A stretch of DNA of 63,005 bases, the filler included, from Candidatus Eiseniibacteriota bacterium (GTDB lineage: Bacteria > Orphanbacterota > Orphanbacteria > Orphanbacterales > Orphanbacteraceae): NCBI GenBank assembly GCA_043809585.1. It is 5 parts of 5 records of this genome, joined end to end, with 100 filler letters (N's around TTAATTAATTAA, not from the genome) between each part and the next. Parts side by side here need not be neighbours in the genome. Positions count along the whole stretch, not along the records: positions 21,584 to 35,791 come from JBDROZ010000020.1; 4 more parts are not named here. The stretch is one strand, 5' to 3'. Positions 3,515 through 56,300 of this stretch are shown piece by piece (position 1 is the stretch's first letter; each line of letters starts with the position of its first letter). A program made the position numbers and the translations under genes. Under the pieces are notes generated by a model. That model was not told where the DNA came from. It ran no database searches and saw only the letters and a program-made list of their open reading frames with translations.

Positions 3515-3550
3515 CTCTCGCCATTCTCCGGTGCGGAGAGGAGAGGAACG

Positions 3551-3623
3551 CAGGTCAGGCAGGGATCGAACCCGCAACCCCCGGTTTTGGAGACCGGTGC
3601 TCTACCAGTTGAGCTACTGACCT
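3551..3623 (-). tRNA. tRNA-Trp(CCA); 3' CCA not encoded
   Basis: Cloverleaf AGGTCAG...CTGACCT-G; anticodon loop CT-CCA-AA; T-loop TTCGATC. Confidence 0.96.
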
Positions 3624-3721
3624 GTGTACTCTCCTTTATCCTTATTAGACTGAGGGACGCGCCGACCTTTTTCAGCCGGCGCGTTCCCCCGGGCGAATCC
3701 AATTCGCTTCCGATCCGGCCC

Positions 3722-4927
3722 CTATCCGAGAATCTCGGCAATCACGCCGGCACCGACGGTGCGGCCCCCCTCGCGGATCGCGAACCGGAGCGACTTCTCC
3801 ATGGCGATCGGCGTGTGCAGGTCGACCACGAGCTCCACGTTGTCGCCGGGCATGACCATCTCCCGTCCCTCGGGGAGCTTGGCCGTACCGGTCACGTCCG
3901 TGGTCCGGAAGAAGAACTGGGGACGGTAGCCGTCGAAGAACGGCGTATGGCGTCCGCCCTCCTCCTTTTTCAGGATGTAGACTTCGCCCCGGAACTTGGT
4001 GTGGGGCGTGACGGAGTTCGGCGCCGCGATGACCATGCCGCGCTCGAGCTCTTCCTTGTCCATTCCCCGGAGGAGGAGGCCGATGTTGTCGCCCGCCTGC
4101 GCCTCGTCCATCATCTTCCGGAACATCTCGACGCCGGTGACGACGGTGTCCTTGGTTTCCTTGATGCCGATCCGCTGGACCTTGTCGCCGACCTTCACCA
4201 CGCCCCGCTCGACCCGGCCGGTGCCCACGGTGCCGCGGCCGGTGATGGAGAAGACGTCCTCCACCGGCATCAGGAACGGCTTCTCCACGTCGCGCGCGGG
4301 CTCCGGAATGTGCGTGTCGATCGCTTCCATCAGTTCCTGGATGCACTTGCTCGCTTCCGGATCGTTCGGGTTGTTCATGGCGGCCAGCGCCGCGCCACGG
4401 ATGACCGGGGTGTCGTCCCCGGGGAAGTCGTAGCTGCTCAGGAGCTCGCGCACTTCCAGCTCCACCAGGTCGAGGAGCTCCGGATCGTCCACGGTGTCGA
4501 CTTTGTTCAGGAAGACCACGATGTGAGGCACGTTCACCTGGCGGGCCAGAAGGACGTGCTCGCGGGTTTGGGGCATCGGGCCGTCCGCCGCGTCCACCAC
4601 GAGAATGGCGCCGTCCATCTGGGCCGCGCCGGTCACCATGTTCTTCACGTAGTCGGCGTGCCCGGGGCAGTCGACATGCGCATAGTGACGGTTCTCGGTC
4701 TCGTACTCGACGTGCGACGTGGCGATCGTCAGGATCTTGGTCGCGTCACGCCGCCCCTGGGACTCGGACGCCTTTGCCACCTCGTCGTAGGTAATCGACG
4801 TGGCGAGACCCTTCGCAGCCTGCACCATGGTGATCGCCGAGGTCAGCGTGGTCTTGCCGTGGTCCACGTGCCCGATGGTGCCCACGTTCACGTGCGGCTT
4901 CGTTCGTTGGAACTTTTCTTTCGCCAT
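3722..4927 (-). CDS. tuf: Elongation factor Tu
   Basis: MAKEKF...GHVDHGKTT...[12 protein letters not shown]...[19 protein letters not shown]. Confidence 0.99.
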
Positions 4928-4983
4928 CTGCTTCGTTCCTCCTAGCCAAAACGGGCGGCGGGGCGCAGGGCCTGATCTCGAGG

Positions 4984-5059
4984 TGGAGCCCACGACCAGA
5001 ATCGAACTGGTGACCTATTGCTTACCATGCAATTGCTCTACCATCTGAGCTACGTGGGC
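4984..5059 (-). tRNA. tRNA-Thr(GGT)
   Basis: GCCCACG...CGTGGGC-T-CCA cloverleaf; anticodon GGT. Confidence 0.96.
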
Positions 5060-5139
5060 CCATTCCTGATGCCGCGGATTCTGTGTCGTTCGCTGCCACT
5101 CCTGCAGTCGCCGCCGTTTGCGGCGCCGCCTCTTCGAAC

Positions 5140-5216
5140 TGGAGCGGGAAACGGGATTCGAACCCGCGACCCTCAGCTTGGAAGGCTGATGCTCTAGCCA
5201 GCTGAGCTATTCCCGC
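5140..5216 (-). tRNA. tRNA-Gly(TCC)
   Basis: GCGGGAA...TTCCCGC-T-CCA; anticodon TCC. Confidence 0.96.
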
Positions 5217-5392
5217 ATGATCACACGTACGCCGGGCGGACATTCCCGGCGCCGCTCAGATCTATGAAAGCCCCTCCGGCATGGAGAAGGCCTTTGCGCG
5301 GTCCCCCGAGAAACCGGCCCGCGGACCGTTGACCCCGGGTCTTCACCGCCGCCCCGCACACCCGGCGCGCGGAGACGTGTTTATCGAAAGAG

Positions 5393-5474
5393 TGGGGAGG
5401 GGAGGATTCGAACCTCCGAAGGCTTCGCCGACAGATTTACAGTCTGTTCCCTTTGGCCACTCGGGAACCTCCCC
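5393..5474 (-). tRNA. tRNA-Tyr(GTA); 3' CCA not encoded
   Basis: GGGGAGG...CCTCCCC-A; anticodon GTA; long variable arm GGC-GAA-GCC. Confidence 0.95.
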
Positions 5475-5546
5475 AAAGATGCGCGCCCCTTTATCCGCCG
5501 GTCTGTCTCGACCCCCGAAGGGTTCGGATCCACCCACCCCGCCATT

Positions 5547-5621
5547 TGGAGCTGGCGAGAGGACTTGAACCCCCAACCACCTCATTACAAATGAGATGCT
5601 CTACCGTTGAGCTACGCCAGC
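5547..5621 (-). tRNA. tRNA-Thr(TGT)
   Basis: GCTGGCG...CGCCAGC-T-CCA; anticodon loop TT-TGT-AA. Confidence 0.95.
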
Positions 5622-5921: not shown

Positions 5922-7979
5922 ATGAAAACGCGCCCCGTCCGACTCCTCATCGTCCTCTTCGTCATCGCCATGGCGCCTCGAGTGGCGTATCTTATTGAAG
6001 CCAAACAGAATCCGCTCTTCGAGGATCTTTACCTCGACGCAGACTCCTACGATCAGTGGGCTCGGGAGATCGCGGCGGGAGATGGGATGGGGGACCGACC
6101 CTTCCACATGGCCCCCCTTTACCCGTACCTTCTCGGCATTCACTACGCGTTCACCGACCACAACCTATTGTTATTACGTCTGTTTCAGCACACGATCGGT
6201 GCGGTCTCCGCCGTCTTCCTCTTTTTGGTCGCCCGGCGGCTTTTCGGCGCCCCCGTCGGTGTGGTCGCCTACATCCTCGGCCTCGGCTATGGACCCTTCC
6301 TTTATTTCGAGGGCCAAGTGCTCGCCTCATTTCTCGGCGTCTTCTTCGGCCTCCTCTCCCTCCACTTGCTCCTTCGATCCCTCGAACGGGGAGGGACGGG
6401 ACTGCTCTGGGCCGGACTGGCTCTCGGCGCCGGATCGCTTGCGAGACCGAACTTATTGTTTTTCATGCCATTAGTCGTCCTGTGGATAACTTTTCAAGGG
6501 CCCCGTCTTCGCCGGAGAGCAGCGCTTTACGCCGCCGGGTTTCTCGTCGCTCTCGTTCCTCCTCTCGTGCACAACCTCACGGTATCGGGTGAGTGGATCC
6601 CCATCTCCACCCATGGCGGCATCAGCTTCTACCTCGGCAACAACGAGTACACGAGCGGCACCTATGTCCCCCCGCCCCAATTCGGCGGAACTCCAGAAGC
6701 GATCGATATTTACGATTCCAAGCGACTGGCCGAGGCGGACACGGGCCGTTTCATGTCGGCCACGGAGATCTCGAACTACTGGTATGGGCGGAGCTTCGAG
6801 TGGATGAGGGAGCACCCCGGACGCGTTCTGATGCTCCTTGGACGTAAGATCTTGTTGTATTTCAATGCATTCGAGATCCCCCTCGACTACAACTTCGAAT
6901 TCGACCGGAGCCTCTACCGCGTTCTCCGTCTCGCCCCCGTCTCCTTCGGGGTCCTTCTTGCCCTCGGCCTGGCGGGGATCTTCCGGCTGCCGTCCGACGG
7001 CCGGGCCAGGGGTTGGCTCCTCGTTCTCTTCGTTCTCGCCAACGCGGCGTCGGTGATCGCCTTCTTTGTCTGCGCCCGGTACCGGCAAACCGCGGTCCCG
7101 GCGGTGGCGATTCTCGCGGCCCTCTTCGTGGTGCGCCTCGCCGAAGACGCCCTGGCCGGGCGTTGGCGGCGGTTCGCCGGGTTCGCCGCCCTCGCGCTCC
7201 TCCTCGCGGTCCCGATCCACCTCGAGGTTTACCGGGGGCGGGAGACGAGCGAAGCTCGGTCGGCCTGCATTCTCGGAAAGGCCTACGCCGCGGCGGGGGA
7301 GCCGAAGAAGGCGGAAGCGGCGTTTCTTCATGCCCTTTCGGTGGTGCCCGGCCACGAGGAGACCCGGATGAACCTCGGCTCCTTCTACTATGATATTGGG
7401 CGCTACCGCGAGGCGGTGGAGGCGTTCCGGGGGGCGACGGAGAACGATCCCGAGTTCGCGGGGGCGTGGAACAACCTCGGCAATGCCCTTCGGGAGGCGG
7501 GAGAAAGGGAGCGGGCGATCGAAGCGATTGAGCGGGCGCTCCGCATCGACCCCGCCTACGCCGGCGCATGGAACAATCTCGGCTACACTCTCGCCCTCGC
7601 CGGCCGGGAGGACGACGGAGAACGGGCGTACGAGCGGGCGATCGGGCTCGACCCCGAGTCGGTTCACGCCTGGGCGAATCTGACCGATCTTCTAATTCAG
7701 GGGGGGCGTCTGGATGACGCCGTCTCCCTGGTCGACCGGGGCGCGGAACGGAATCCCGGCTCCCTCGAGTTCGCCTGGAAGCGGGAGCGAACGGAAAGGG
7801 CCGCGGCAGCCTACCGGGTGGCGGTGGATGCGGCGGGCCGGGGCGATCGGGCCGAGGCCGGACGGAATCTCGCCGAAGCGATCAGGCAGGGGGGAGAGCC
7901 GGTCCGACGATGGGCCTCCCGGGACCCGGCGCTTGCCCCGCTTCGGAATGACGGCCCCGGCGGAGGATCAGGACCATAA
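5922..7979 (+). CDS. GT-C fold (ArnT/PMT, GT39/83-like) membrane glycosyltransferase with C-terminal TPR repeats
   Basis: LDADSYDQWA, PLYPYLLG, RPN, GGISFYLGNN, ARYR motifs; many TM segments; TPR motifs AWNNLG. Confidence 0.85.
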   Translation: MKTRPVRLLIVLFVIAMAPRVAYLIEAKQNPLFEDLYLDADSYDQWAREIAAGDGMGDRPFHMAPLYPYLLGIHYAFTDHNLLLLRLFQHTIGAVSAVFLFLVARRLFGAPVGVVAYILGLGYGPFLYFEGQVLASFLGVFFGLLSLHLLLRSLERGGTGLLWAGLALGAGSLARPNLLFFMPLVVLWITFQGPRLRRRAALYAAGFLVALVPPLVHNLTVSGEWIPISTHGGISFYLGNNEYTSGTYVPPPQFGGTPEAIDIYDSKRLAEADTGRFMSATEISNYWYGRSFEWMREHPGRVLMLLGRKILLYFNAFEIPLDYNFEFDRSLYRVLRLAPVSFGVLLALGLAGIFRLPSDGRARGWLLVLFVLANAASVIAFFVCARYRQTAVPAVAILAALFVVRLAEDALAGRWRRFAGFAALALLLAVPIHLEVYRGRETSEARSACILGKAYAAAGEPKKAEAAFLHALSVVPGHEETRMNLGSFYYDIGRYREAVEAFRGATENDPEFAGAWNNLGNALREAGERERAIEAIERALRIDPAYAGAWNNLGYTLALAGREDDGERAYERAIGLDPESVHAWANLTDLLIQGGRLDDAVSLVDRGAERNPGSLEFAWKRERTERAAAAYRVAVDAAGRGDRAEAGRNLAEAIRQGGEPVRRWASRDPALAPLRNDGPGGGSGP

Positions 7980-13115: not shown

Positions 13116-15587
13116 GTGAAGATCCATCCGATTCAGAGACCATCTTCAAGACGGTACCAGGCGCCGCATTTCCGGGCACTACTCCTGCTGCTCCTCGCTC
13201 TGTATTCCAGCTCTCCCTCCGGCGCGGAAGAGGGTCCCCGGTGGCTGATACTGGATGACAACGATGCCCCACCCGGAGGCACGACGGTCCTCGACCGGTT
13301 CCCGGGCGGGTGGCTGCTCTGGTCAAGGGGCGGGGCCGGTCTCGAAGTCACCTTGGGAATTCCGGTCACCCCGGGGCGGACAGTCACATTCCTGGCCGGG
13401 ACCGGCTCGTCTCCCGACCTCCATGACTCAGTCATGGACGGCGTCGACATTCTCGGCCGGGTGGGGGCCTCCTGGATCGTCGAGTCCGACGGCCCTCTCC
13501 CGATGACCCCCAAACTCCGGACTTTCGAGCGCCGGGTCCTCCGGACCGATCCGATCCGCCCTCCGCAGCCGGCGACGGTCCCGGCCCTGCCGAGGAACGC
13601 CCCCACGGGCATAGACGAGATGGTCGGCCGGGTGAATGAAGTCTCGATCGCCGCGTGGATCGGAAGCCTCGCGGGGGCGAACCCGGTGGAGGTGAGCGGC
13701 ACCCCCTTCACCTTCGAGACGAGGTTCACGGCGACCGCCTCGTGCGACACGGCGGAGCGATACCTTTACGAGCGCTTCCTCGATCTCGGCTTCGAGGACG
13801 TGGTCTTCGATCCGTACTCCTTCGGGTCCGTGAACGCCCGGAACGTGATCGCCACGCTGCCGGGGACGGAGACGCCGGAGCGGATCTACATACTCTGCGG
13901 CCACCTCGATTCATTTTCAGGGCAGCCCCTCGCGAACGCACCGGGAGCGAACGACAACGGGAGCGGCGTGGCGGTGATGCTCGCCGCCGCCGAAATCCTG
14001 CGGGACTACGAATTCCGTTCGACGATCCGGTTCATCGCCTTCACCGGCGAGGAACAGGGGTTGTACGGGTCGGCCCACTACGCGTCGGAGGCCGCGGCCG
14101 CGGGCGACTCGATCCTCGGAGTGATCAACTGCGACATGGTCTCGTACTATCACGCCCAGCGGAAGCTCGTCATCGAAGGGGGACCGGAGTGGGAGTGGCT
14201 GATGGCGGTCCTCGCGGAGGCGTGCGCCGACTACACCGATCTCACCGCGGTCTTCGACTACACCAGCTCTTCCTCGGACCACGTCTCATTCCAGAGCGAA
14301 GGATACCCCGCGGTGCTCGCCATCATGAACGATTACGCCGCTTACCCGTGCTGGCACGCAACGTGCGACACGGCGGGCCTACAGAAGACCGACTTCGCCG
14401 CGGACGTGGCGCGGGCGTGCGTTGCGGCGGTCTCCGGTCTCGCCGAACCGGCGGGGTTGATCGTCGAGCACGTGCCCCTGCCGCGGATCTCCACCGACAC
14501 GGCGGGGGTGCTCGAGGTTGTCGTGTCGATCGTGTCGGACACGGCCCTTTCGTCCGACTCCCTCGCGGTCCGCTACCGGGAGACGGGGGACTATATCAAC
14601 GTGCCTCTCGCCCCTGCCGGCGGGCCGGGCGAGTACCACGCGTTTCTCCCGGCGCCCTCCCTCCACGGCTCCCTCGCCTATTTTATCCGAGCCCGGGACG
14701 AATCGGGCCGGGTCCGCACCCACCCATGGAACGCGCCGGACTCGCTTCATCTCGTCGTCGCCGGAGCGTGGGAGACGATTGCCTTCGAGGACTTCGAAGC
14801 GGGCGGTGCGAACTGGCTCCACGGCGGGATCCTCGACGACTGGGAGATCGGACCGCCCCTCGGGCTCGCCGGCGACCCGGAGGGGGCGTGGTCCGGAACG
14901 AACGTCGCCGGGACGGATCTCTCCGGACTCGGCCTCGTCCCGGGGAGCTACGAGAACGGGTGTGAGACCTATCTTCTCTCGCCCCCCGTCGACGCTTCCC
15001 CCTTCGACAGCGTTCGCGTCTCCTTCCGGCGGCGCCTCGCGATCGAGGCGGTGGGCGACTCGGCCTGTTTCCTCGTGAACGGATCGCATGCGTGGGCGAG
15101 CTCGGGCGCGGGTCCGCCGGTCGACACGGCGTGGGTCTACGTCGAGTACGACATCTCGCCCCTCGCCGCCGGAAGGCCGTCGGTGTTCTTCCAGTGGACG
15201 ATGAAAGCGGACGGTCAGGAGACATACGGCGGCTGGAACATCGACGACGTCCGCGTCTTCGGCATCCGTTCCGACTTTCTGACCGCCGTGGCCGGTGAGT
15301 CGCCGGCCCCGCCTCTCTCCCTCCCCGCCAACCACCCCAACCCCTTCAATCCGGTCACCACGATCCGGTTCGATCTCGCTCGGGAAGGGCCGGTCCGTCT
15401 CGCGATCTACGACGGGAGGGGACGATTGATCCGGACCCTCCTCCGCGGTCCGATGACCGCCGGCACTCACGAAGAGGTCTGGAACGGAAAGGACGACCGG
15501 GGCCGCGCCGTTTCCTCCGGCCTGTACTTCTATCGACTGGACGGAGCCGGGAGTTCGATGGCGGGAAAGATGACGTTACTTCGTTAG
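13116..15587 (+). CDS. M28 family metallopeptidase with C-terminal T9SS/FlgD-Ig domain (start uncertain)
   Basis: GHLDS, PGANDNGSG, FTGEEQGLYGS, SDH; C-terminal PNPFNP...WNGKDDRG..VSSGLYFYRL. Confidence 0.88.
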   Translation: MKIHPIQRPSSRRYQAPHFRALLLLLLALYSSSPSGAEEGPRWLILDDNDAPPGGTTVLDRFPGGWLLWSRGGAGLEVTLGIPVTPGRTVTFLAGTGSSPDLHDSVMDGVDILGRVGASWIVESDGPLPMTPKLRTFERRVLRTDPIRPPQPATVPALPRNAPTGIDEMVGRVNEVSIAAWIGSLAGANPVEVSGTPFTFETRFTATASCDTAERYLYERFLDLGFEDVVFDPYSFGSVNARNVIATLPGTETPERIYILCGHLDSFSGQPLANAPGANDNGSGVAVMLAAAEILRDYEFRSTIRFIAFTGEEQGLYGSAHYASEAAAAGDSILGVINCDMVSYYHAQRKLVIEGGPEWEWLMAVLAEACADYTDLTAVFDYTSSSSDHVSFQSEGYPAVLAIMNDYAAYPCWHATCDTAGLQKTDFAADVARACVAAVSGLAEPAGLIVEHVPLPRISTDTAGVLEVVVSIVSDTALSSDSLAVRYRETGDYINVPLAPAGGPGEYHAFLPAPSLHGSLAYFIRARDESGRVRTHPWNAPDSLHLVVAGAWETIAFEDFEAGGANWLHGGILDDWEIGPPLGLAGDPEGAWSGTNVAGTDLSGLGLVPGSYENGCETYLLSPPVDASPFDSVRVSFRRRLAIEAVGDSACFLVNGSHAWASSGAGPPVDTAWVYVEYDISPLAAGRPSVFFQWTMKADGQETYGGWNIDDVRVFGIRSDFLTAVAGESPAPPLSLPANHPNPFNPVTTIRFDLAREGPVRLAIYDGRGRLIRTLLRGPMTAGTHEEVWNGKDDRGRAVSSGLYFYRLDGAGSSMAGKMTLLR

Positions 15588-21287: not shown

Positions 21288-21483
21288 TTAACCTTGATTC
21301 TCCATAAAATCTCGGCTCAAAACGCTGACGCTCGCATGATCGCACGCCATCTGCGACAGGGCGCGGCATTCACCAATGCTCACATATCGTTGGATATGCT
21401 CTGCTTGGTGAATGCCGCGCGCTGCCGCATCTGACGCACTCTCACGCGTTTGCTCTCGAGATTTTATGGAGAATCAAGGTTAA
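21288..21483. mobile_element. Palindromic MITE-like element family A, complete copy (196 bp)
   Basis: Perfect 27-bp terminal inverted repeat TTAACCTTGATTCTCCATAAAATCTCG; central 16-bp stem GCGCGGCATTCACCAA/TTGGTGAATGCCGCGC; homologous copies at 55006 and 60725. Confidence 0.8.
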
Positions 21484-21583
21484 NNNNNNNNNNNNNNNNN
21501 NNNNNNNNNNNNNNNNNNNNNNNNNNNTTAATTAATTAANNNNNNNNNNNNNNNNNNNNNNNNNNNNNNNNNNNNNNNNNNNN
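21484..21583. other. Artificial contig linker
   Basis: N44-TTAATTAATTAA-N44 (stops in all six frames). Confidence 0.98.
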
Positions 21584-21828
21584 ACCTCCCCGATGATCCC
21601 CTCACCGAGAGGCACCCTCCGATACGCCTCGGCCACACGGTCCGAGGCCCCCTGCAGCGCCTCGAGCCGGAGGAACTTCCCCTCCGCGTCGAGGAGGAAG
21701 ATCGCCCCCACTTCGAAGCCACAGAGACGAATCGCCCGGTCGAGGATCCGGGGTAAGGTGGACTCGAGGGATCCGGCCCGCGAAACGAGCTCGAGGATCT
21801 CCTCCCAGAGGGCGGCCGATTCGAGCAT
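21584..21828 (-). CDS. GAF-domain signalling protein, 5' part only (cut by contig end)
   Basis: ILDRAIRLCGFEVGAIFLLD...L...G...VPLGEGIIG; RBS AGGAG. Confidence 0.75.
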
Positions 21829-21969: not shown

Positions 21970-23460
21970 ATGGCCTATCGTCGCATCGGCTGGTCCCTCT
22001 TCGGGACTTTTCTCGCCCTCTATCTCTCCACCGCCGGTGGACGCCTCTACGTGAACGACGCCTACGTCAAGCTCCTCACGGCCCGTTCCCTGCTCGAGCG
22101 GGGATCCCTCGCCATCGACGCGGACAGCCGTCTCACCGCCCGCTCCCCGAAAGACGGTTTGGACTACGCCAAGTTCGGCGTTCTTCACTCGATCCTCTTC
22201 CTCCCCGCCGTGGCGACGGGGAAGGCCCTCGCCGCGGCGGGCGCCCTCGCTCCCGAATCGCGGGGACTCGCCGAGAGCTCCCTCGCCAGCGTCGGGAGCC
22301 CCTTCTTCACGGCTCTCACGGTGGCCCTCTTCTTCCTCTGGGGGCGCGCCGTCTTCCGTGACGACCGGGCCGCGCTCCGGGCCGCACTCCTCCTCGGGAT
22401 CGCCACCATGATCTGGCCCTACGCCAAGCGTTCGTGGAGCGAGACCCCTCAGATGACGCTGCTCGTCGGCGCCGCCCTTCTCCTCGCCCGGGCGGAGTCA
22501 CGGGAACGGGCCGGACCGGTCTTCGGCGCGGGCCTCCTGGTCGGCGCGTCGGTGGCGCTCCGGATCACGGGAGTTGCCGTCGCCCCGATCTTTCTCCTTC
22601 CCCTCCTCTCCGGGGCGGACCGGCGCGGGGCGATCCGGCGGATCCTCCTGTTCGGCGCCGGGGGGCTGGCCGTCACCCTCCCCCTCGTGCTCGGCGTCAA
22701 CTGGTGGCGCTTCGGCACGCCCTTCTCCCTCTTCGCCTGGCGGATGGGGGGATTCACGACACCCTTTTTCGAAGGTCTCGCGGGGCTCCTGGTGAGCCCC
22801 GGGGAGTCGCTCTTTCTCTACTCGCCCGTTCTCCTGCTCGGGGCGGCCCTTCTCCCGCGCCTCCGGCGGGAGTCGCCGGGCTCTTTCCCGGTCGTTCTCC
22901 TCCTCCCCGCGGCGCTCCTGCTGCTCTACGCCCCCTGGTGGTTCCACGCCTACACCTGGGGGCCCCGCTTCCTCCTGCCGGCGATCCCCTTCCTCCTCCT
23001 CCCCCTCGCCTCTCCCGGGGTATGGTCCTCCCCCCGGTGGCGGCGGGCGATCATCGCCGCCGGAATACTCTCGACGGCGATTCAAATTCTCGGCGTGACT
23101 GTCCATCTCGGAGACCTCGGCGAGATGGAACGGCCCCTCGTCCGGCACGGTCTCCTCCCCCCCGACCGTCCCCTCACACGGGCGGACACCTGGTGGCATC
23201 CCCTCCGAACCCGTCCGGTCTCCCACCTGCTCGCCCTCGGCGACGCCTCCTCCGACGCGCTCCGCGGCCGCCCTCCCGGCTTCGCGCCGGACTTCTGGCC
23301 GTGGACCCTCCGGGGTCTTTTCGGGATCCCCCTCCGGGCCACCCTCCCCCTTCAGATTCTCCTTTTCGCCGCGGCGCTCTTCGGAATCGTCCGCCTCGGG
23401 CGACTTGCGTGGAGAACCGGAGGAGAAAGCGGAGCGGAGCGGGAACCGGTCGAGATTTGA
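21970..23460 (+). CDS. Polytopic membrane protein, GT-C-like glycosyltransferase
   Basis: YAKFG, WPYAKRSWSE, GLLVSPGESLFLYSP, WGPRFLLP motifs; many TM segments; RBS GGAGG. Confidence 0.75.
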   Translation: MAYRRIGWSLFGTFLALYLSTAGGRLYVNDAYVKLLTARSLLERGSLAIDADSRLTARSPKDGLDYAKFGVLHSILFLPAVATGKALAAAGALAPESRGLAESSLASVGSPFFTALTVALFFLWGRAVFRDDRAALRAALLLGIATMIWPYAKRSWSETPQMTLLVGAALLLARAESRERAGPVFGAGLLVGASVALRITGVAVAPIFLLPLLSGADRRGAIRRILLFGAGGLAVTLPLVLGVNWWRFGTPFSLFAWRMGGFTTPFFEGLAGLLVSPGESLFLYSPVLLLGAALLPRLRRESPGSFPVVLLLPAALLLLYAPWWFHAYTWGPRFLLPAIPFLLLPLASPGVWSSPRWRRAIIAAGILSTAIQILGVTVHLGDLGEMERPLVRHGLLPPDRPLTRADTWWHPLRTRPVSHLLALGDASSDALRGRPPGFAPDFWPWTLRGLFGIPLRATLPLQILLFAAALFGIVRLGRLAWRTGGESGAEREPVEI

Positions 23461-23641
23461 CCGGAGGGGGGGATCATCCTTCCCGAGGGCCCGAACCCTC
23501 TCTCCGTCACCGCCCACACGGCCCATCATTCGCCCCCGACTGGGCTCCGGATCGAACACTTCGAGTGCTTTCTAGGTCCTTCTCATAACATATTACATTT
23601 GTGTATATTCTGACTTTCTTTGTGGATTCTCTGAAAAGAAG

Positions 23642-23670
23642 TTGACAAGGGGGGAGGCCGTTTTTACACT
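23642..23670 (+). promoter_or_regulatory. Near-consensus sigma70 promoter with AT-rich upstream region
   Basis: TTGACA-17 nt-TACACT; AT-rich tract at 23580-23640; no credible CDS downstream. Confidence 0.75.
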
Positions 23671-23995
23671 GCCCATCCACGCCTTTTTCGACCGTCACCC
23701 CTCTGTCCTTTTCGGAGAGGGATGCGCCCGGAAGGAGGCGGCGGGGCGATCGGGCTCCGGGTTCCGGAAACGGGGCCGTTCGGCCGCGATGCCGGAACCG
23801 GGAAAACCGGGTCGGGGCTCCTCGGGGGAAAGGGCGGGAAGTTCACGGCTCACCCCCTGCCCCCGGGACGCCGGCCCGGCTCGCGAGAGAAGGAAATACA
23901 GAGATAGGCCGCTTTTCCGCGCGGGGCTTATGATTGGAGGTGGACGTCCGCATTTCCACTCTCCCGCAAGCTCACGGCGAATAGGCGGCCTTCCT

Positions 23996-24178
23996 TTTTG
24001 TCGGCGAATGCGGGTGGTTTCTACTGCGGTCGAGGATCGCGGGCTGCGAGACCACCCTTCCTTCGTCGCCTCCTCGACGGGGCTAAGGCCCCGCCTCCGG
24101 GGGCTCCTCGTCCAGGGAGGGCCTCTCGCCCCGCGCTCCTCAACCTCGCGACGAAACCACCCGCTTCCGCCGACAAAA
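23996..24178 (+). mobile_element. Palindromic element family B, divergent copy (183 bp)
   Basis: 26-nt imperfect terminal IR TTTTGTCGGCG..GCGGGTGGTTTC; core TACTGCG...CCTCCTCGACG...CGCCTCCGG...CTCGTCCA shared with 56118-56300. Confidence 0.75.
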
Positions 24179-24656
24179 CCCCGGAGGGGAAGCCAGGCGC
24201 AAGCCAAACCCCTCAGTCCTGCGAGGAAACAACGGAAACGGAATCTCGCTACGAAGCGACGTGCATCGCCCAACGAAACTCAGGAATGGGAACTCGTCAA
24301 GTTCGGCTGAAACGAGCGCGGCACAATCGTTGGTGCCGGAGCGCGGGCCCGGGAAGGGGGACGCCATCCCTTTCCCTTCCGGGCCGGCCCTTCGGTCGAG
24401 CCCCCGATTGGTTCGGTGTTCTTTCGGCAGTCCTTGCTGATCATTCGCGGCCACGGGCGGGTGGCTGCGGCAGGGGTCCGCGAGGAGCGCAGCCACCAAG
24501 CGCCGGATCCCGATTTCCCTGGAATCCACGAAGAGCGAAAGCCGCGGTTCACGCGTTGCAGGCGAGAAGAAGGCATGGCGCGACTGGCGAGCACTGCAGC
24601 GGACAGCCGCAGACAGGTCCCGCCCGTCCGCCAACCCCAGAGAGCCTGCCTAGAAG

Positions 24657-24700
24657 TGGATAGCGGGCCTGTCCGCGAGGAGAAGGCCCGCTATCCATTT
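24657..24700. terminator. Probable bidirectional intrinsic terminator
   Basis: 14-bp stem TGGATAGCGGGCCT/AGGCCCGCTATCCA followed by TTT; between the candidate ncRNA (+) and tRNA-Arg (-). Confidence 0.7.
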
Positions 24701-24703
24701 ACA

Positions 24704-24776
24704 TACGCCCGGCAGGATTTGAACCTGCGACACCTGGCTCCGGAGGCCAGTGCTCTATCCACTGAGCTACGGGCGC
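24704..24776 (-). tRNA. tRNA-Arg(CCG); 3' CCA not encoded
   Basis: GCGCCCG...CGGGCGT-A; anticodon loop CT-CCG-GA; TTCAAAT; upstream TGGACC-17-TACAAT promoter-like site. Confidence 0.95.
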
Positions 24777-25006
24777 GTGTTCTTTCCTGATGAAAACCCC
24801 GTCCCCGGGGGACGGGCCAGGGGGGATTGTAGCCCAGCGGCCGGGGAGGGTCCATCGGAAAAGCCCTCTCTCTCCGAGCCCGGAAGACGCCGGATCCGCC
24901 CGCCGGAGCCTGCCCCGACCGTCGATCAGTCATCGGGCGCGCGAAGCGTCCGCGCCATCACTCGATCTCTGATCTGACGTCGGATCTCGACTCAGAATAG
25001 AAACGG

Positions 25007-26206
25007 TCAGGAGAGCTTCTTCCCTTCCGCCTCCGCGACGGTCATCACGTCCTTGTCCCCCCGCCCCGAGACGTTGATCATCACGATCGATCCTCTCTTC
25101 ATCCGCTTCGCCTCCTTCGCCACATAGGCGATGGCGTGGGCCGTCTCGAGGGCGGGCACGATGCCCTCCGTCCGGGAGAGCATGTGGAACGCGCGAAGCG
25201 CCTCCTTGTCGCCGATCCGGACGTACTTCACCCGCCCCACATCGCGGAGATGGGCGTGCTCCGGGCCGATCGACGGGTAGTCGAGGCCCGCGGAAATCGA
25301 GTGGGTTCCGACCACTTGACCGTGCCGGTCGTGAAGCAGGTAACTGTGGGTGCCGTGGAGCACGCCGGAAGACCCGCCCGAGAAGCGGGCCGCGTGATCG
25401 CCGAGCCGGGGCCCCCTCCCTCCCGCCTCGACGCCGACCATGGCCACGGACTCGTCGGCGAGGAACGGATGGAAGAGCCCGATCGAGTTCGACCCTCCCC
25501 CCACGCACGCCACGAGCAGGTCGGGGAGACGCCCCTCGGCGCGCATGATCTGGCGCCGCGCCTCCTCGCCGATCACCGTCTGGAAGTCCCGCACCATGAC
25601 CGGGTACGGGTGGGGACCGAGCACCGAACCGAGGAGGTAGTGGGTGGTGCGGACGTTCGTCACCCAGTCGCGCATCGCCTCGTTGATCGCGTCCTTGAGC
25701 GTGCGCGTCCCCGAGTCGACCACCCGCACGTCCGCGCCGAGAATGTTCATGCGGAAGACGTTCAGCGCCTGCCGCCGCATATCCTCGGTGCCCATATAGA
25801 TCACGCACTCCATGCCGAGGAGCGCCGCGGCGGTCGCCGTCGCCACGCCGTGCTGCCCGGCGCCGGTCTCGGCGATGATCCGCCTCTTCCCCATCGCTTC
25901 GGCGAGGAACGCCTGCCCGACGGCGTTGTTGATCTTGTGGGCGCCGGTGTGGTTCAGGTCCTCCCGTTTCAGATAGATCTTCGGGCCCCCGAACTTCTCC
26001 GTGAGGCGGCGGGCGAAGGTGAGCGGCGAGGGCCTCCCGCAATAATCCCGGAGAGCCTCCCGAAGGCGCTTCCGGAACGGGGCGCTCTTCTTCTCCGCAA
26101 AGTACGCCTTCTCCAGTTCGAAGAGAGCGGGCATCACCGTCTCCGGGACGAAGCGGCCCCCGTACTTTCCGAAATACCCCCGTCGGTCGGGCTGGGTCTT
26201 CTTCAT
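25007..26206 (-). CDS. trpB: Tryptophan synthase beta chain (TrpB1 type)
   Basis: [55 protein letters not shown]. Confidence 0.98.
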
Positions 26207-35891: not shown

Positions 35892-36053
35892 AGTCATAAG
35901 AGCCTCCCCCCGGGCGCTACCACTTATCGCTCCTAGCCGTCGCGATAAGTCCAAGCGCCCGACGGGCCCCGTCGAGGAGGCGGCGAAGGAAAGGAGGCTT
36001 CGCAGGCGGCGATCCGAGATCGCAGTAGGAGATTTGTGCATAGTCCAGGCTAG
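35892..36053 (-). mobile_element. Family B element, left arm plus expanded central insert, truncated by contig end
   Basis: 35970-36053 is a near-identical reverse complement of 56118-56201; insert contains hairpin ACTTATCGC/GCGATAAGT. Confidence 0.8.
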
Positions 36054-44300: not shown

Positions 44301-45271
44301 GCCAGACCATCGAGTACATCTACCGGATCACCAACACGAGCAACTGCCCGGCCTACCCGTTGGTCGGGTACTCCGTTTCCCAGCCGTGGTCCGTCATGGT
44401 GGAGGATCCGGGCGATACGGCGATCGCCGCCGGCGCCCACGAGGACCTCACCGTCACGATCATGATCCCCGACTCCGCGGAAATCGACGACGAGCACCTC
44501 TTCGAGCTCTGCGTGGCGATGATGAGCGATCCGCCGCCCCCCCCCGCGAAAGCCGAGAACGACTTCGTCTTCGATTGCGACACGACCATCACCCGGGTCA
44601 TCGGCGACGGGGAGTGTGTGCCCTACCAGTCGGTCCTCGGCCTCGGCGCCTACGAGACTGTGAGCTACGTGCCCCCGATCTGGAAGGTCCGCGTGGACGT
44701 GAGGAACTTCGGACCGGGCGAGGCGCGCAATGTGCACCTCGTGATGGGTGAGGACATCGACTGGCTCAACCTGTCCGACGCATTCGTCGACTACGGATCG
44801 ATCGGACAAGGAGCATCGAGCTTCGGCATGGCCGGCGACTACTTCGAAATGGACCTGACCGGCTATCCGGGGGGGAGCTTCAACGTCTGGTTCAACGCGA
44901 CCTATACGGATTCGTGCCAGGTCCCGTACCAGCTCCGGCTCGATCCGACCTTCCTCGACCCGAACGAGAACGGAGCGCCGGCCGCGGTTCCGGGCGCCTT
45001 CGCCCTGCACCAGAACCGGCCGAACCCGTTCAACCCGACCACGGAGATCTCCTTCGATCTTCCGGAATCGGGGTTCGCGGAGCTGACGATCTTCAATGCC
45101 GCCGGTCAGATGGTAAAGAAGCTGCATACGGGGCAACTTTCTTCGGGGACCCACACATTTGTCTGGGACGGCCAAAACGAGCGCGTAATCGACGCACCTT
45201 CAGGGACTTACTTCTATTCCCTGGGGGCGAACGGCAAGGTGGAAACGAAGCGGATGGTGCTCATCCGGTAG
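41345..45271 (+). CDS. Large secreted Cys-rich protein with Ig-like repeats and T9SS/FlgD-Ig C-terminal domain
   Basis: Signal peptide; putative Ig (GGTPPYAW..GLPEGM...GTPT); seven PG..V.Y.F...NTG.C repeats; LHQNRPNPFNPTT...SGTYFY...KRMVLIR; RBS AGGAGG. Confidence 0.88.
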   Translation: MRHSVRYVAGWVGVFLLLAAPGWADFVGLNGDGIAGCDSADMAFDATGLVGSTRNIDLYFSDIVGNMGSYGCVFCVKDKSMVSNESFVYVDNGWTGSPMKLSDGPGWTIAVSDFITTAYPDYRCYLVQATDFTFLNPVTTFPFVLGTFSYQVAAEGCLGFVIDGANSAWLSSAFQSFLFDAPGETCDTSNCAAAGPPPLVIDSLSPGCPIPDAVIDFDYTADNTIQFTAVGGTPPYAWTQAGLPEGMNVDNDGFIVGTPTQAGGFGFTVIIDDAGSGHDELPCSLFVIEYGVQVELNTPPNRIVEPGDTLSHEFRVTNIGNTTTDFGYVIGSLHGSTFWLNHTGSTLAPLGAQSVTVVETVSVAPPCPPVGSALDSKTIFGAAVLALIPDVKRMENTPTAFDTVNVEVRFPGGVENLVDNYDRCDLPGNTVSFEYSFHNTGICLDTFDLSASDLDLPWVYRIVGSNPLILNGDQWGFVHLEVDIGDGLCLEPQRFQMTATGRNFGATVSDTVTACPLWYYFGTMTHPGDGFGEPGDPVEYCYTIENTGNCPALFILRFTSGWDTDPDMSPPQQYNVTLQPGGTDVFCLDHLIPGDAQANDMDELCAVLSVSAASGAKTRDVVLDTACVTTTVQVACEGGVTVAPQTNSLCKFPGETFDAMFDVTNTGTCAETFDLAAGVLFNDWSSSVAPTVTIPAGVTTPVAVSVTVSPDEGCGSGASVYLTATGQNYGAADSNAVSETVCTVLDGEVAEEDDGSGLPGDSVEYCFTIQNTGNCTAEFILDIAQVGIWQVIGPGEIYELMPGETADPCVRHVIPEDAQPGDSSPMCVRLLVSDTPPKRELLPVDSTCVTTSVTGGPCEAGVAVNSPGGPYMADPGLAVAVPFWVKNIGVDPDRYAMASFTNNGWASSIIGPDTTGVVAPGDSVLALVEVTVAPDALCDELGEVQFVALSLCDAQTFADDMNDVGVNAVFSGDATAFTEDTTGVSGQTIEYIYRITNTSNCPAYPLVGYSVSQPWSVMVEDPGDTAIAAGAHEDLTVTIMIPDSAEIDDEHLFELCVAMMSDPPPPPAKAENDFVFDCDTTITRVIGDGECVPYQSVLGLGAYETVSYVPPIWKVRVDVRNFGPGEARNVHLVMGEDIDWLNLSDAFVDYGSIGQGASSFGMAGDYFEMDLTGYPGGSFNVWFNATYTDSCQVPYQLRLDPTFLDPNENGAPAAVPGAFALHQNRPNPFNPTTEISFDLPESGFAELTIFNAAGQMVKKLHTGQLSSGTHTFVWDGQNERVIDAPSGTYFYSLGANGKVETKRMVLIR

Positions 45272-45593: not shown

Positions 45594-47783
45594 ATGAAGC
45601 GACCGTTCGTTCCGCTCGCCCTGCTCCTCCTCTCCTTTCTTTTTCCTTGCGAGCTCCGCGCCGGGTACGACCGCTGGACCGCGGAGGGGGGACCCTTCGG
45701 CGGTCGCGTGGAGGCCATTCTGGATCTTCCGGGCGGGGGAGGGCTCCTCGTGGGGACCGAGGCGGGGGGCATCTTCCGCCGGGAGGGGGGACGGTGGGTC
45801 CGGCGAAACGACGGCCTCCTCCTTCTGGATGTTTGCGCCCTCGAGGCGAACCCCGCGGACGCCGACACGGTCTTCGCGGGTACGTCGGGGGCCGGCGTGT
45901 ACCGGAGCGCGAATGGAGGAAGGAGCTGGTTCCCCGCCAACACGGGCCTCACGAACCTGGCGATCCGGGATCTCGCCCATCTCCCGGGCGGCGCGGGTCT
46001 TCTCGCGGCGACGGCGGGAGGGGGCGTCTTCCGCACGCTGGACGCCGGTCTTCACTGGACGCCGTCGAACCCGGGCCTCGGAAACGTGTACGTCCGATCC
46101 CTCGCGTTCGCCCCTTCCGATCCGTCCGTGGTCTACGCCGGTACCGACGGGGGGGTCTATCGTTCGGTCAACGGAGGCCTCACGTGGGCGTCCCGCACGG
46201 CGGGGCTGCCGGCTTCGCCGATCGAGGAGATCGCCGTCGATCCCGTCGACGAGGACCGGGCCTACGCCGGCACCTACGGGGCCGGCGTCTTTCGCACGCT
46301 GAGCGGCGGCCTCTCCTGGAGCGCCGCCGTGGCGGGAATGGGAGCGGTCTACGTGGAGGGGATCGAAATCCGGGAGGACCGCCCCGACACCCTTTGGGCC
46401 GCCACCCGTTCGGGACTCTTCGAGTCTTTCGACGGGGGATCGCTCTGGGCCGCACGGAACGCCGGTCTCGCCGACACGGTCCTCCTTGCGGTCGAGATCG
46501 CCGGCGAGACGCTGGCCGTCGGGAGTTACTGGGGGGGCGTCGCCTTCTCGCCGGCGCCGGCCTTCGGTTGGACGGCGATGAACGATGGGCTCGCGAACCG
46601 TTTCGTCTGGGAGATCGCCCTTTCGCCGTGGGACGGGGGCGTCCTCTACGCCGCGTCGTACGGGGGCGTCTCGGTCTCGGCCGACACCGGCTGGACCTGG
46701 AGCGACGCATCGGGCGGCCTCGGCGAATTCGACGTCCGCTCCGTGGCGCCGAGCCCCGGCGAGCCGAACAAGGTCCTTGCCGGTTTCTTCTACGGCGGCG
46801 TGTTCCGGTCCCTCGACGGAGGCGGATCGTGGGCCCCTTCCTCCGGCGGACTTCCGGCGGGGGCAACCGTCACGGTGCTCCGGCACCGCCCCGGCGACGG
46901 TTCCCGGGTGCTCTGCGGAACCTATTCGGGAATGTACGCGAGCGCCGACGGCGGCGCGACCTGGGTCTCGTCATGGAGCGGATTCGGCAGGAAGAAGGTG
47001 TGGGGGGCCGCCACGGTCGCCACGGCCCCCGACCTGGTCTACGCGGGCACCTACGAAAACGGGCTATTCAAGTCGGTCGATTTCGGGGCAACCTGGGACT
47101 CGGTCCCCCTGCCCGATCCGTTCGTGCGGGCCGTCGCCGTCGATCCGACGGACACTTCCGTCGTGTACGCCGGGGGGTACTACACTCAGGGGGGTCTCGG
47201 CGGCGTCTACAAATCGACGGATGGCGGCGCATCGTGGACGGCGAAGAACTCCGGCCTGTTGAACGAGTCGGTCTGGTGTCTGCAGGTCGATCCGTACGAA
47301 CCGTCCCGCATTCTCGCGGCGACCGCCGCCGGGGTCTTCGAGTCGAGGAACGGCGCCGACTCGTGGAGCGGCGTGAACGTCGGATTGCAGGCGAAGGATG
47401 TCCGGTGGGTGGTCCTCGCCGGGGAGAGGCTCGTGGCCGGGGTCTACGGCGGTTCCGCCCCCTGGTACGAGGGCGCCGTCGTGTCGGTCGCATCCTCCGG
47501 CCCTGCCCGCGCCCCTTTTCGGATTGTCGCGGCGCCGAATCCCTTCAACCCGTCCACGGTCCTCCGGCTCCCGCCCGTTCCCGGCAAGGTCCGGGTGGGC
47601 ATCTACGACATCGCCGGGCGTTTGGTCCGCCGCCTCGAGAGTGGGGGCGCCGGTGAAGAAGAGGCGCTCTTCCCCTGGGACGGCCGGGACGGCTCGGGGC
47701 GGAACGTTTCCTCGGGAGTCTACTTCGGCGTCGCCGAAACGGCGTTCGGAACCGCCCGGGCCCGGATCGTGCTCGTCCGTTGA
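45594..47783 (+). CDS. BNR/Asp-box beta-propeller protein with T9SS/FlgD-Ig C-terminal domain
   Basis: Many S.DGG..W repeats; signal peptide; PNPFNPST...WDGRDGSGRNVSSGVYF. Confidence 0.88.
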   Translation: MKRPFVPLALLLLSFLFPCELRAGYDRWTAEGGPFGGRVEAILDLPGGGGLLVGTEAGGIFRREGGRWVRRNDGLLLLDVCALEANPADADTVFAGTSGAGVYRSANGGRSWFPANTGLTNLAIRDLAHLPGGAGLLAATAGGGVFRTLDAGLHWTPSNPGLGNVYVRSLAFAPSDPSVVYAGTDGGVYRSVNGGLTWASRTAGLPASPIEEIAVDPVDEDRAYAGTYGAGVFRTLSGGLSWSAAVAGMGAVYVEGIEIREDRPDTLWAATRSGLFESFDGGSLWAARNAGLADTVLLAVEIAGETLAVGSYWGGVAFSPAPAFGWTAMNDGLANRFVWEIALSPWDGGVLYAASYGGVSVSADTGWTWSDASGGLGEFDVRSVAPSPGEPNKVLAGFFYGGVFRSLDGGGSWAPSSGGLPAGATVTVLRHRPGDGSRVLCGTYSGMYASADGGATWVSSWSGFGRKKVWGAATVATAPDLVYAGTYENGLFKSVDFGATWDSVPLPDPFVRAVAVDPTDTSVVYAGGYYTQGGLGGVYKSTDGGASWTAKNSGLLNESVWCLQVDPYEPSRILAATAAGVFESRNGADSWSGVNVGLQAKDVRWVVLAGERLVAGVYGGSAPWYEGAVVSVASSGPARAPFRIVAAPNPFNPSTVLRLPPVPGKVRVGIYDIAGRLVRRLESGGAGEEEALFPWDGRDGSGRNVSSGVYFGVAETAFGTARARIVLVR

Positions 47784-47875
47784 TCCCCCGAGTTCTCCGG
47801 CGTCCCCTCACGGGCCCGTCTTGACATCCTCTCCGCCGGACGTCTATGTTCTACGCCGGAGCGCGGGGAACGACC

Positions 47876-50071: not shown

Positions 50072-51769
50072 ATGCCGAGGATCCTTCGTTGTTTCGTTCC
50101 CCTGTTCGTCCTTTCCAGCCTTCTCCTGACCTTCGTCTCCGCGACCGCCGAGAGTCCGAATCACTCTCGGTGCGCCACCTCCCTCTTCCAGGAGCAGAAG
50201 GTGGAGGCCGCCCAGACCGTTCTCCGGCCCTCCGAGGGGGGACCCACCGAGAGAGCCGCCTCCAAGATGATGACGCCCCCGCCGAACCCGAACGTGGGGG
50301 ACCGCTGGAGCTGGTACATTTGGCGCCTGAACGGAATGCCCGAGGCCGATCTGTTGCCCTGCACGGTGCGCGGGGAAGGAGATCATTGCTATGTGGTCGT
50401 CGAGGATAGCCAGTGGGGCGTGAACGTGAATCAGGCCCAGGTGGATACCATTCTCGCCCGTTTTGAAGACCACACGCCCGGCCCGCACCCGAACCTCGGG
50501 ATATACGACATCGACACCCTCGCCTTCGGCATGCCCCCCGACGAACTCGACAACGACCCGAAGGTCTACATCCTCTACTACGATTTCGACGTCAACGCCG
50601 ACGGATTCTTCTGGTACTTCGACGAGTACCCGGACGGGACCTTCTACTTCTCTTCTAACGAGTGCGAGGTGGTCTACCTGAACTGCAGCGACAACGACCC
50701 GGCGGGAGACTACATGCTCGCCGTCCTCGCCCACGAGTTCGAGCACATGATCCACTGGAACTATGACCCTGACGAATCGGCGTGGGTCGACGAGGGGTGC
50801 GCCGAACTCGCCATGTGGCTCTACGGAAATCCGGACAATATCTCCGGGTTCAACACGTCCCCCCAGGATCCGCTGATCGTCTGGAACGGGGCCTGGACCG
50901 ACTACATCCAGACCTACCTCTGGACCCTCTACTTCTACGAGCAGTACGGGGGGCTTCCCGCCATCCGGGCGGTTGTGGAGGAACCGGATAGTTCGGTATT
51001 CGGCTACAATAACGTCCTCTCCGGCCTCGGCGCGGGGGTCACCTTCGACGACGTCTTCGGCGACTGGGTGGTGGCGAACTTCGTCGACGACCCGTCTCTC
51101 GCCGACGGGCGCTACGGCTACGTCGGCGACGCCCTCCCGACGTTCCTTTCGGTCACGCACAGCGCCTACCCCGTGGGACCCCTCAGCCAGAACCAGCAGC
51201 CCACCGGGTGCAAGTACCGGAAGTTCATCAACGGCTTCCCCATGTCCGTCTACTTCGACGGCTCCGACAACGCGGTGTGGAAGCCCCGGGTGATCTATTA
51301 CTCCGGCGGATCCGCGGTGGCCGTGGGCGAGATCCCCTTGGACGGAGCGAACTCGGGCGACCTCTATCTCGCCGACTTCGGCGGCGCCCACGACCAGGTG
51401 GTGGTCACGATGGCCCACGCCTCCTACTACGGGTCGAACGGCTACACGTACGGCACCGAGTCGACGACGGACGTGGATGGCGCCGTTCCGGCCGCCCTCC
51501 GGCTCCTCCCGAACGTTCCGAACCCCTTCAATCCGAGCACGGAGATCTCCTTCTTGATCGACCGGCCCGGATCGGTCAATCTGACGGTGCACGACGCCTC
51601 GGGCCGGCTCGTCCGGACCCTCCACGACGGACCGGCGCCCGCCGGCCTCCGCTCCGTGGTGTGGGACGGGACGGACGACTCGGGCCGCGCCGTCGGCAGC
51701 GGTTCCTATCTGGCCCGCATGACCGCGGGAGAGCGGGTGGAGACCAGGAAGATCTCCCTGGTCCGGTAG
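50072..51769 (+). CDS. Secreted zinc metallopeptidase (M30-like) with T9SS/FlgD-Ig C-terminal domain
   Basis: [33 protein letters not shown]...[14 protein letters not shown]. Confidence 0.82.
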
Positions 51770-51975
51770 GACCCTCTGACTTCCTGCTGCAGGCGCGGCT
51801 CGCGGGCTGCGAGGCCTTCTTTCCTTCGCCGCTTCCTCAACGGGGCTTTGGGCCCCGCCTGCGGGAGCGGCTCGTCCAAGGCGGCCTCTCGCCACCCGAG
51901 ACGCGCCCTCGCAACGAAAGTCATCGGACCCTACCGGCCCGCCGAGGAGGAAGACCCGAGAGGAAGGAAGGTGGG

Positions 51976-56117: not shown

Positions 56118-56300
56118 CTAGCCTGGATTATGCACAAATCTCCTACTGCGATCTCGGATCGCCGCCTGCGAAGCCTCCTTTCCGTCGCCGCCTCCTCGAC
56201 GTAGTGCATGGCTACGCCTCCGGTGGCGGCTCGTCCAAGTCGGCTTCTCGTCAGGCGATCCGAGCCCTCGTGACGGAGATTCATGCATAATCCAGGCTAG
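56118..56300 (+). mobile_element. Palindromic MITE-like element family B, complete short copy (183 bp)
   Basis: 26-nt terminal IR CTAGCCTGGATTATGCA(CA/TG)AATCTCC; whole element folds as an imperfect hairpin; right end supplies the ino1 stop. Confidence 0.85.

Follow-up and report, generated by a model that had tools for sequence, protein, structure and literature searches.

A conserved structured RNA of the Eisenbacteria, probably an attenuator leader of pilM operons, in a copy without a pilM gene

We analyzed a 1.24-kb gap (positions 23460-24704) between a PMT_2-family gene and a tRNA-Arg gene in a genome of Candidatus Eiseniibacteriota (Eisenbacteria). Positions refer to the whole stretch of DNA under study, 63,005 nt made up of five joined records, which we call the window. 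Our main finding is that the interval appears to be a composite and not one RNA, and that its first ~320 nt are probably a pilM-operon attenuator leader that contains a terminator and was left stranded by an inversion and a deletion; we assign this reading a probability of roughly 0.6. By sequence comparison, the conserved part of the interval is window ~23642-23999 only.

The interval and its promoter

The left flank of the gap is a PMT_2-family membrane protein gene on the + strand (21970-23460; Pfam score 26.7 bits, cut-off 26.1), and the right flank is tRNA-Arg(CCG) on the - strand (24704-24776), a neighbor of the RNA that is conserved in most relatives. Beyond the tRNA lie trpB, trpF, trpC and trpD, all on the - strand. 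Several other features of the window were recorded along the way. An AT-rich island at 21350-21650, with a GC content of 0.39 against a background of ~0.68, immediately precedes the PMT_2 gene, and a tRNA cluster (Trp, Thr, Gly, Tyr, Thr) occupies 3550-5621 on the - strand. Window ORFs at 15264-15587, 45020-45271, 47574-47786 and 51518-51769 have a C-terminal domain in common with positions 6075-6398 of locus L082 (~35-40% identity by tblastx), whose protein is encoded just before tRNA-Arg in genome G007. DNA contigs from one study (three sets) contain exact short matches to 23250-23433, 23534-23756, 24144-24363 and 24988-25208; these pieces support local contiguity only, and possibly derive from the source sample. 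A search of a phage collection in distant mode gave no match.

A sigma-70-type promoter, TTGACA-17-TACACT, is present on the + strand at 23642-23670 with 10 of 12 consensus matches, and the region holds three promoter-like sites, where shuffles would lead one to expect 0.1. From its position we infer an RNA start near 23677. All relatives whose sequence was read at this point had TTGACA and a TAnnAT -10 element at the homologous place, with a spacer of 17 nt, but 18 nt in L012; the alignment with L001 gives TTGACA-17-TAGAAT. The open reading frames of the gap are Arg/Gly/Pro-rich shadow ORFs only, and the four longest had no Pfam match.

Searching the whole window with Rfam at the gathering score returned only six tRNAs. 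A more permissive Rfam 15 search of 23400-24900 (E<=10) gave a convincing match for the tRNA alone, all other matches scoring 12-30 bits, far under their cut-offs, and the same search at E<=1 in six relatives' loci gave tRNAs and noise only. The models without a match in the interval include GOLLD, ROOL, GEMM-I/II, T-box, RNase P, tmRNA, SRP and group I/II introns. A preliminary description, made from the sequence alone, had reported a near-consensus promoter pointing into DNA with no credible protein, a series of stems read on the + strand, an inserted element, an adjoining tRNA-Arg and no sign of RNase P, tmRNA or a group II intron. Each of these observations is borne out here or below, and the listed stems are present in the sequence.

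Relatives and structure of the conserved RNA

Through its PMT_2 protein (48% identity) we found a relative, L001, among the Candidatus Eisenbacteria of the genome collection. DNA similarity between L001 and the gap is limited to the tRNA, window ~23844-23870 and 23936-24000, and the promoter, with nothing else in common. BLAST with 23630-24005 as the query found matches in six of nine genomes of the phylum, a single match in each. A covariance model of the hairpin called D2 below (model R1) gave one match of 98-111 bits per genome in seven of the nine, and none in G002 and G008. A metagenome pattern scan for the D2 core yielded 51 loci, of which 48 were unrelated and mostly coding; the three true homologues were L017, L022 and L051, and the one new sequence gained was L022, since L051 and G007:C10 (L010) are one 56,611-nt contig and L017 is near-identical to L010. 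This leaves eight distinct loci in relatives (L001, L010, L011, L012, L013, L014, L022 and L089). Support from covariation comes from only eight distinct, related sequences in two or three clades. Model R1 scores 102.4 bits on the + strand of the window and 35 on the - strand, which places the RNA on the strand of the promoter.

We also considered 6S RNA. Its model (RF00013) matched other contigs in eight of the nine genomes, five of these matches lying above the cut-off, so the conserved RNA is not 6S.

The conserved structured RNA, a homologue of the relatives' pilM-operon leader, would extend over 23677-23999 on the + strand (~320 nt). Folding of 23677-24002 (326 nt) gives a z-score of -4.63, and none of 100 shuffles was as stable. 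Its 5' part (23682-23800, + strand) forms GC-rich hairpins in the minimum free energy (MFE) structure; it varies in sequence and length among relatives and is poorly alignable (alignment A2). The whole RNA is 194 nt long in L012, and leader lengths overall range from 194 to 373 nt.

Downstream of this part are two domains separated by an A-rich linker, both present in each homologue's own MFE fold. Domain D1 (23809-23877, + strand) consists of three stacked helices, P1 (GGGTCGG/CCGGCCC), P2 (CTCGGGGG/CCCCCGGG) and P3 (GGG/CCC), around the invariant block CACGGyTCACCCCCT. Because the MAFFT alignment is not structural, D1 was checked helix by helix. The helices are maintained in all seven D1-bearing sequences, with changes of C-G to G-C, G-C to A-U and C-G to A-U between clades; L012 is without D1.

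Domain D2 (23908-23990, + strand) is a long irregular hairpin of ~83 nt with 27 modelled pairs, an invariant apical GGTGGACGTCCGCA block and a closing helix GCCGCTT/AGGCGGC. It is present in all copies and more strongly conserved than D1, and its loop and internal-loop sequences are invariant. In the alignment of eight sequences (A4), 95.8% of cells are paired and seven of the 27 pairs show double changes. Shuffles reach a mean of 3.5 such pairs, and three of 500 reach seven, a count that is not to be taken as a probability and that is inflated by kinship among the eight sequences. Slid controls had one to four double-change pairs, with 41-57% of cells paired. The window copy forms 25 of the 27 pairs, within the range of the other copies (24-27). 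Among the homologues, D1 and D2 are conserved with compensatory changes, and conservation does not extend past ~24000.

Immediately after D2 comes the U-tract TTCCTTTTT (23991-23999, + strand), preceded by an A-rich stretch and terminator-like in appearance. A T-rich tail follows D2 in eight of nine copies (window, L010, L022, L012, L001, L014, L013 and L089) and is weak in L011, and the A-rich stretch pairs with the tail in each homologue's MFE fold. The alignments offer two mutually exclusive candidate pairings at the apex of D2, GGAGGTG/CAyyTCC or GGTGGA/TCCACC, and a GCGG in D1 is complementary to a CCGC in D2. No conserved antiterminator pairing was found. A possible T-box-like resemblance of the apical block had no support in Rfam.

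Could the block be conserved for a reason other than RNA structure? It might be a promoter-distal operator acting at the level of DNA, where a transcription factor would bind the palindrome GGACGTCC, or it might encode a leader peptide; we regard both as very unlikely. The invariant apical block does hold an 8-bp perfect palindrome, but G-U pairs produce the strong strand asymmetry of the R1 score given above, and compensatory changes flank the block. As for a peptide, the five clade-A sequences have a 16-codon frame across D2 that starts with ATG or TTG and ends with TAG, located at 23932-23984 in the window and shared by L010, L011, L012 and L022. Clade B, however, has neither start nor stop at the same place, L001 and L013 have a 1-nt deletion relative to L014, and the variable codon (Q, W, G or C) fits a stem, not a peptide. 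Such 1-nt indels within D2 exclude a shared reading frame, and we rejected the leader peptide. The clade-A frame is judged to be a by-product of RNA conservation.

Repeats, spacer and distal hairpin

Beyond ~24000 the interval is of a different nature. A dispersed palindromic repeat of the MITE/REP-like kind (23996-24178) is inserted right at the U-tract; this is the inserted element of the preliminary description. Its 26-nt inverted arms (23996-24021 and 24153-24178) are 92% complementary, and three further copies are present in the window (51781-51919, 56143-56275 and 35966-36028). Among the matches listed, genomes G005, G007, G008 and G009 account for 15 to 50 each. The family is ~140-180 nt long with a conserved core, and copies from L066 and L067 could also be aligned. 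Like known MITE/REP-like elements, both repeats of this interval are short, non-coding, multi-copy, hairpin-forming and intergenic, and the first has terminal inverted repeats as well. It differs from them in having copy-specific arms, with no target-site duplication seen and no linked transposase. The outer arms vary between copies yet remain self-complementary, which makes them less like terminal repeats bound by a transposase; the element is closer in appearance to a hairpin under selection than to fixed ends that a transposase would bind.

The unique spacer that follows (24179-24445) contains small GNRA-type hairpins and A-rich joiners. It had no match in the nine genomes at E<=0.05, and its comparison with the relatives' pil loci gave only noise below 35 bits. 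It is no more stable than its shuffles (z of -1.18 on the + strand and -0.09 on the - strand). A second dispersed repeat (24446-24637) consists of two halves, 24446-24501 and 24577-24637, with an insert of ~75 nt between them. Elsewhere (G007, G008 and G009) the halves lie ~8 nt apart with 85-94% identity, and contigs carrying other copies skip 67-110 nt at the position of the insert. This repeat, ~115 nt long, was also observed in the genomes of different species (L076-L081), downstream of gene ends; L076 has an extra partial copy right beside the full one.

At the end of the interval, a hairpin with 17-nt arms that are 94% complementary (24654-24700) lies 4 nt past the 3' end of tRNA-Arg on the - strand. 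Given that position, it is most simply the terminator of tRNA-Arg, possibly a bidirectional one. The preliminary description had taken it as the terminator of the transcript coming from the promoter. The hairpin itself is real; on the + strand it is followed only by TTT, and a simple terminator scan of the region flagged neither this hairpin nor D2.

These results bear directly on the central proposal of the preliminary description, that the promoter, the interval and the distal hairpin make up a single structured RNA of ~1 kb (~840 nt minus the insert), of the GOLLD or ROOL type or of a new class, ending at 24654-24700. GOLLD and ROOL RNAs are several hundred to ~800 nt long and are associated with phage or tRNA arrays. 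The interval resembles them in being non-coding, rich in stems and close to a tRNA gene; no ORF has a Pfam match, many local GNRA-loop stems read on the + strand, and the whole 1,024 nt fold at -545.6 kcal/mol on the + strand against -536.8 on the - strand. Read-through of D2 would, moreover, physically give such a transcript. Against this, conservation stops at ~24000, where the internal hairpin and its U-tract (23908-23999) also end, and both 23996-24178 and 24446-24637 are multi-copy repeats found in other contexts elsewhere. The segment between these repeats is no more stable than shuffles, and only 23677-24002 surpasses its controls. The distal hairpin has no U-tract on the + strand and abuts the 3' end of the tRNA. 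No covariance model of Rfam, GOLLD and ROOL included, matched the interval; the conserved unit is ~320 nt, and its partner in relatives is pilM, not phage or tRNA arrays. The single long RNA is largely refuted already, and we consider it highly improbable. What survives of the proposal is a structured RNA without an Rfam match and with its own promoter in this lineage of the FCB group, the Eisenbacteria; it measures ~320 nt and is not a free-standing giant. A GC-rich, stem-filled, ORF-free kilobase beside a tRNA is by itself no proof of a giant RNA.

The pilM operon and the orphaned copy

In all eight distinct loci of relatives, pilM, the lead gene of a type IV pilus assembly operon, lies directly downstream of the RNA on the same strand, at a distance of ~35-230 nt. 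Its product matches Pfam PilM_2 (cut-off 27) with scores of 62-63 bits in L001 and L051. Between D2 and pilM there is no promoter-like site in any of the eight loci, as judged by the sigma-70 consensus only and by the same criteria as the upstream promoter. All eight relatives thus have the order expected of a leader, with promoter, RNA and gene on one strand and no promoter-like site intervening; the window does not.

In L001, L010/L051, L011, L012, L014 and L022, tRNA-Arg(CCG) immediately precedes the promoter; in L089 it is absent beside the RNA. One clade (L001 and L014) has it co-directional with the RNA, the other (L010, L011, L012 and L022) has it divergent, and in the window it is convergent and downstream; the junction of tRNA and RNA seems prone to small inversions. 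Two genomes are without the RNA. In G002 a pilM of 36% identity is directly preceded by a type IV pilin-like gene (L095, contig G002:C9), and the best PilM-like match in G008 is only 28% identical.

A search for pilM across the 63-kb window found none, and neither were there homologues of the other genes that follow the RNA in L051. The RNA copy of the window is therefore orphaned. In L001 the order is trpB, tRNA-Arg, RNA, pilM and its followers, and then a convergent PMT_2 gene. Compared with L001, L022 and G007, the window has retained both flanks, its unit of promoter and RNA is inverted, and the pil genes are missing, a pattern that an inversion and a later deletion would explain. A search of 24179-24660 for remnants of pil genes (tblastx and blastn against nine loci) gave noise only, with all matches below 35 bits. 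An att-type direct repeat of the tRNA 3' end, as expected of an integrated element, was not found. The promoter of the window copy is intact though pilM is gone.

If the RNA is an attenuator leader, RNA polymerase starting at the strong promoter would either stop at D2, freeing an RNA of ~200-370 nt, or read through into pilM; a ligand or factor that acts on D1 and D2 would decide between the two outcomes. We infer the ends of the transcript, termination at D2 and conditional read-through. In the window, where repeats and spacer have replaced the pil genes, the promoter should yield mostly the terminated RNA of ~320 nt. Any polymerase that reads through would continue across the repeat debris in the direction of the 24654-24700 hairpin, which would chiefly serve the convergent tRNA-Arg.

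Some observations count against the attenuator. That D2 is more conserved than D1, and that D1 is missing in L012, is unusual for a riboswitch built of an aptamer and an expression platform. The failure of the terminator scan to flag D2 and the weak T-tract of L011 point the same way. The strength of D2 conservation and the intact orphan copy are the reasons why a trans-acting small RNA stays the main rival. The ~320-nt RNA would then be an independent gene with its own promoter and an efficient terminator, merely neighboring tRNA-Arg and pilM. It has a conserved promoter close to the consensus, D2 together with the A-tract and U-tract resembles a full terminator, and the invariant loops of D2 are what one would expect of a surface that binds protein or RNA. 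The unit has also stayed intact in the window without pilM; with the promoter and 25 of 27 D2 pairs preserved there, a role in trans fits no worse than one in cis alone. The case for an independent gene has to contend, however, with the placement of the RNA, co-directional and directly upstream of pilM in eight of eight relatives with no promoter-like site between, and with L001, where only ~35 nt separate D2 from the start codon, so that pilM there must be read through D2. The RNA is also single-copy in each genome, with no target identified. We consider an independent small RNA gene possible though doubtful, and prefer the attenuator leader.

Functionally, the closest analog is a pilM leader with a known ligand. 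In Geobacter metallireducens, the pilM leader is a GEMM-I riboswitch, an ON-switch for cGAMP whose intrinsic terminator, at the end of the leader, controls read-through, as described in PMC9262584. The Eisenbacteria relatives share with that system the position before pilM and, if D2 terminates transcription, the logic of a terminator. They differ from it in that neither the window RNA nor its relatives match GEMM-I or any other Rfam model (E<=10 for 1.5 kb of the window; E<=1 in six loci), the leader is much longer at 194-373 nt, the terminator-like hairpin is its most conserved part, and the window copy has no pilM. Attenuators of the T-box, ANTAR and PyrR types are alike in having a long leader with a conserved element that overlaps the terminator, a putative one here, which would fit recognition by a factor in trans; they differ in that the RNA has no Rfam match and no antiterminator alternative was found. 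pilM is not known as a typical target of these systems.

The pilM-leader motif is apparently undescribed: a literature search on noncoding RNA in Eisenbacteria and on pilM riboswitches or leaders returned no description of it. The phylum it comes from is uncultured, poorly sampled and has hardly been studied. With its clear genetic link to pilM, a promoter that is defined and an end resembling a terminator, the motif is a candidate for the control of type IV pili by RNA and lends itself to testing. The two repeat families of the same interval illustrate how intergenic DNA is remodelled in these genomes. The orphaned copy, for its part, is a natural test of cis against trans function. A bolder and rather improbable extension is that D1 and D2 represent a new class of signal-responsive attenuator, either a riboswitch or a leader bound by a factor, gating the type IV pilus assembly genes of Eisenbacteria. 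Such an attenuator would work like the cGAMP riboswitch of Geobacter without being related to it in structure, and its ~320-nt product would also act in trans. Were this true, the intact survival of the RNA without pilM would mean that the terminated product has a trans-acting role of its own.
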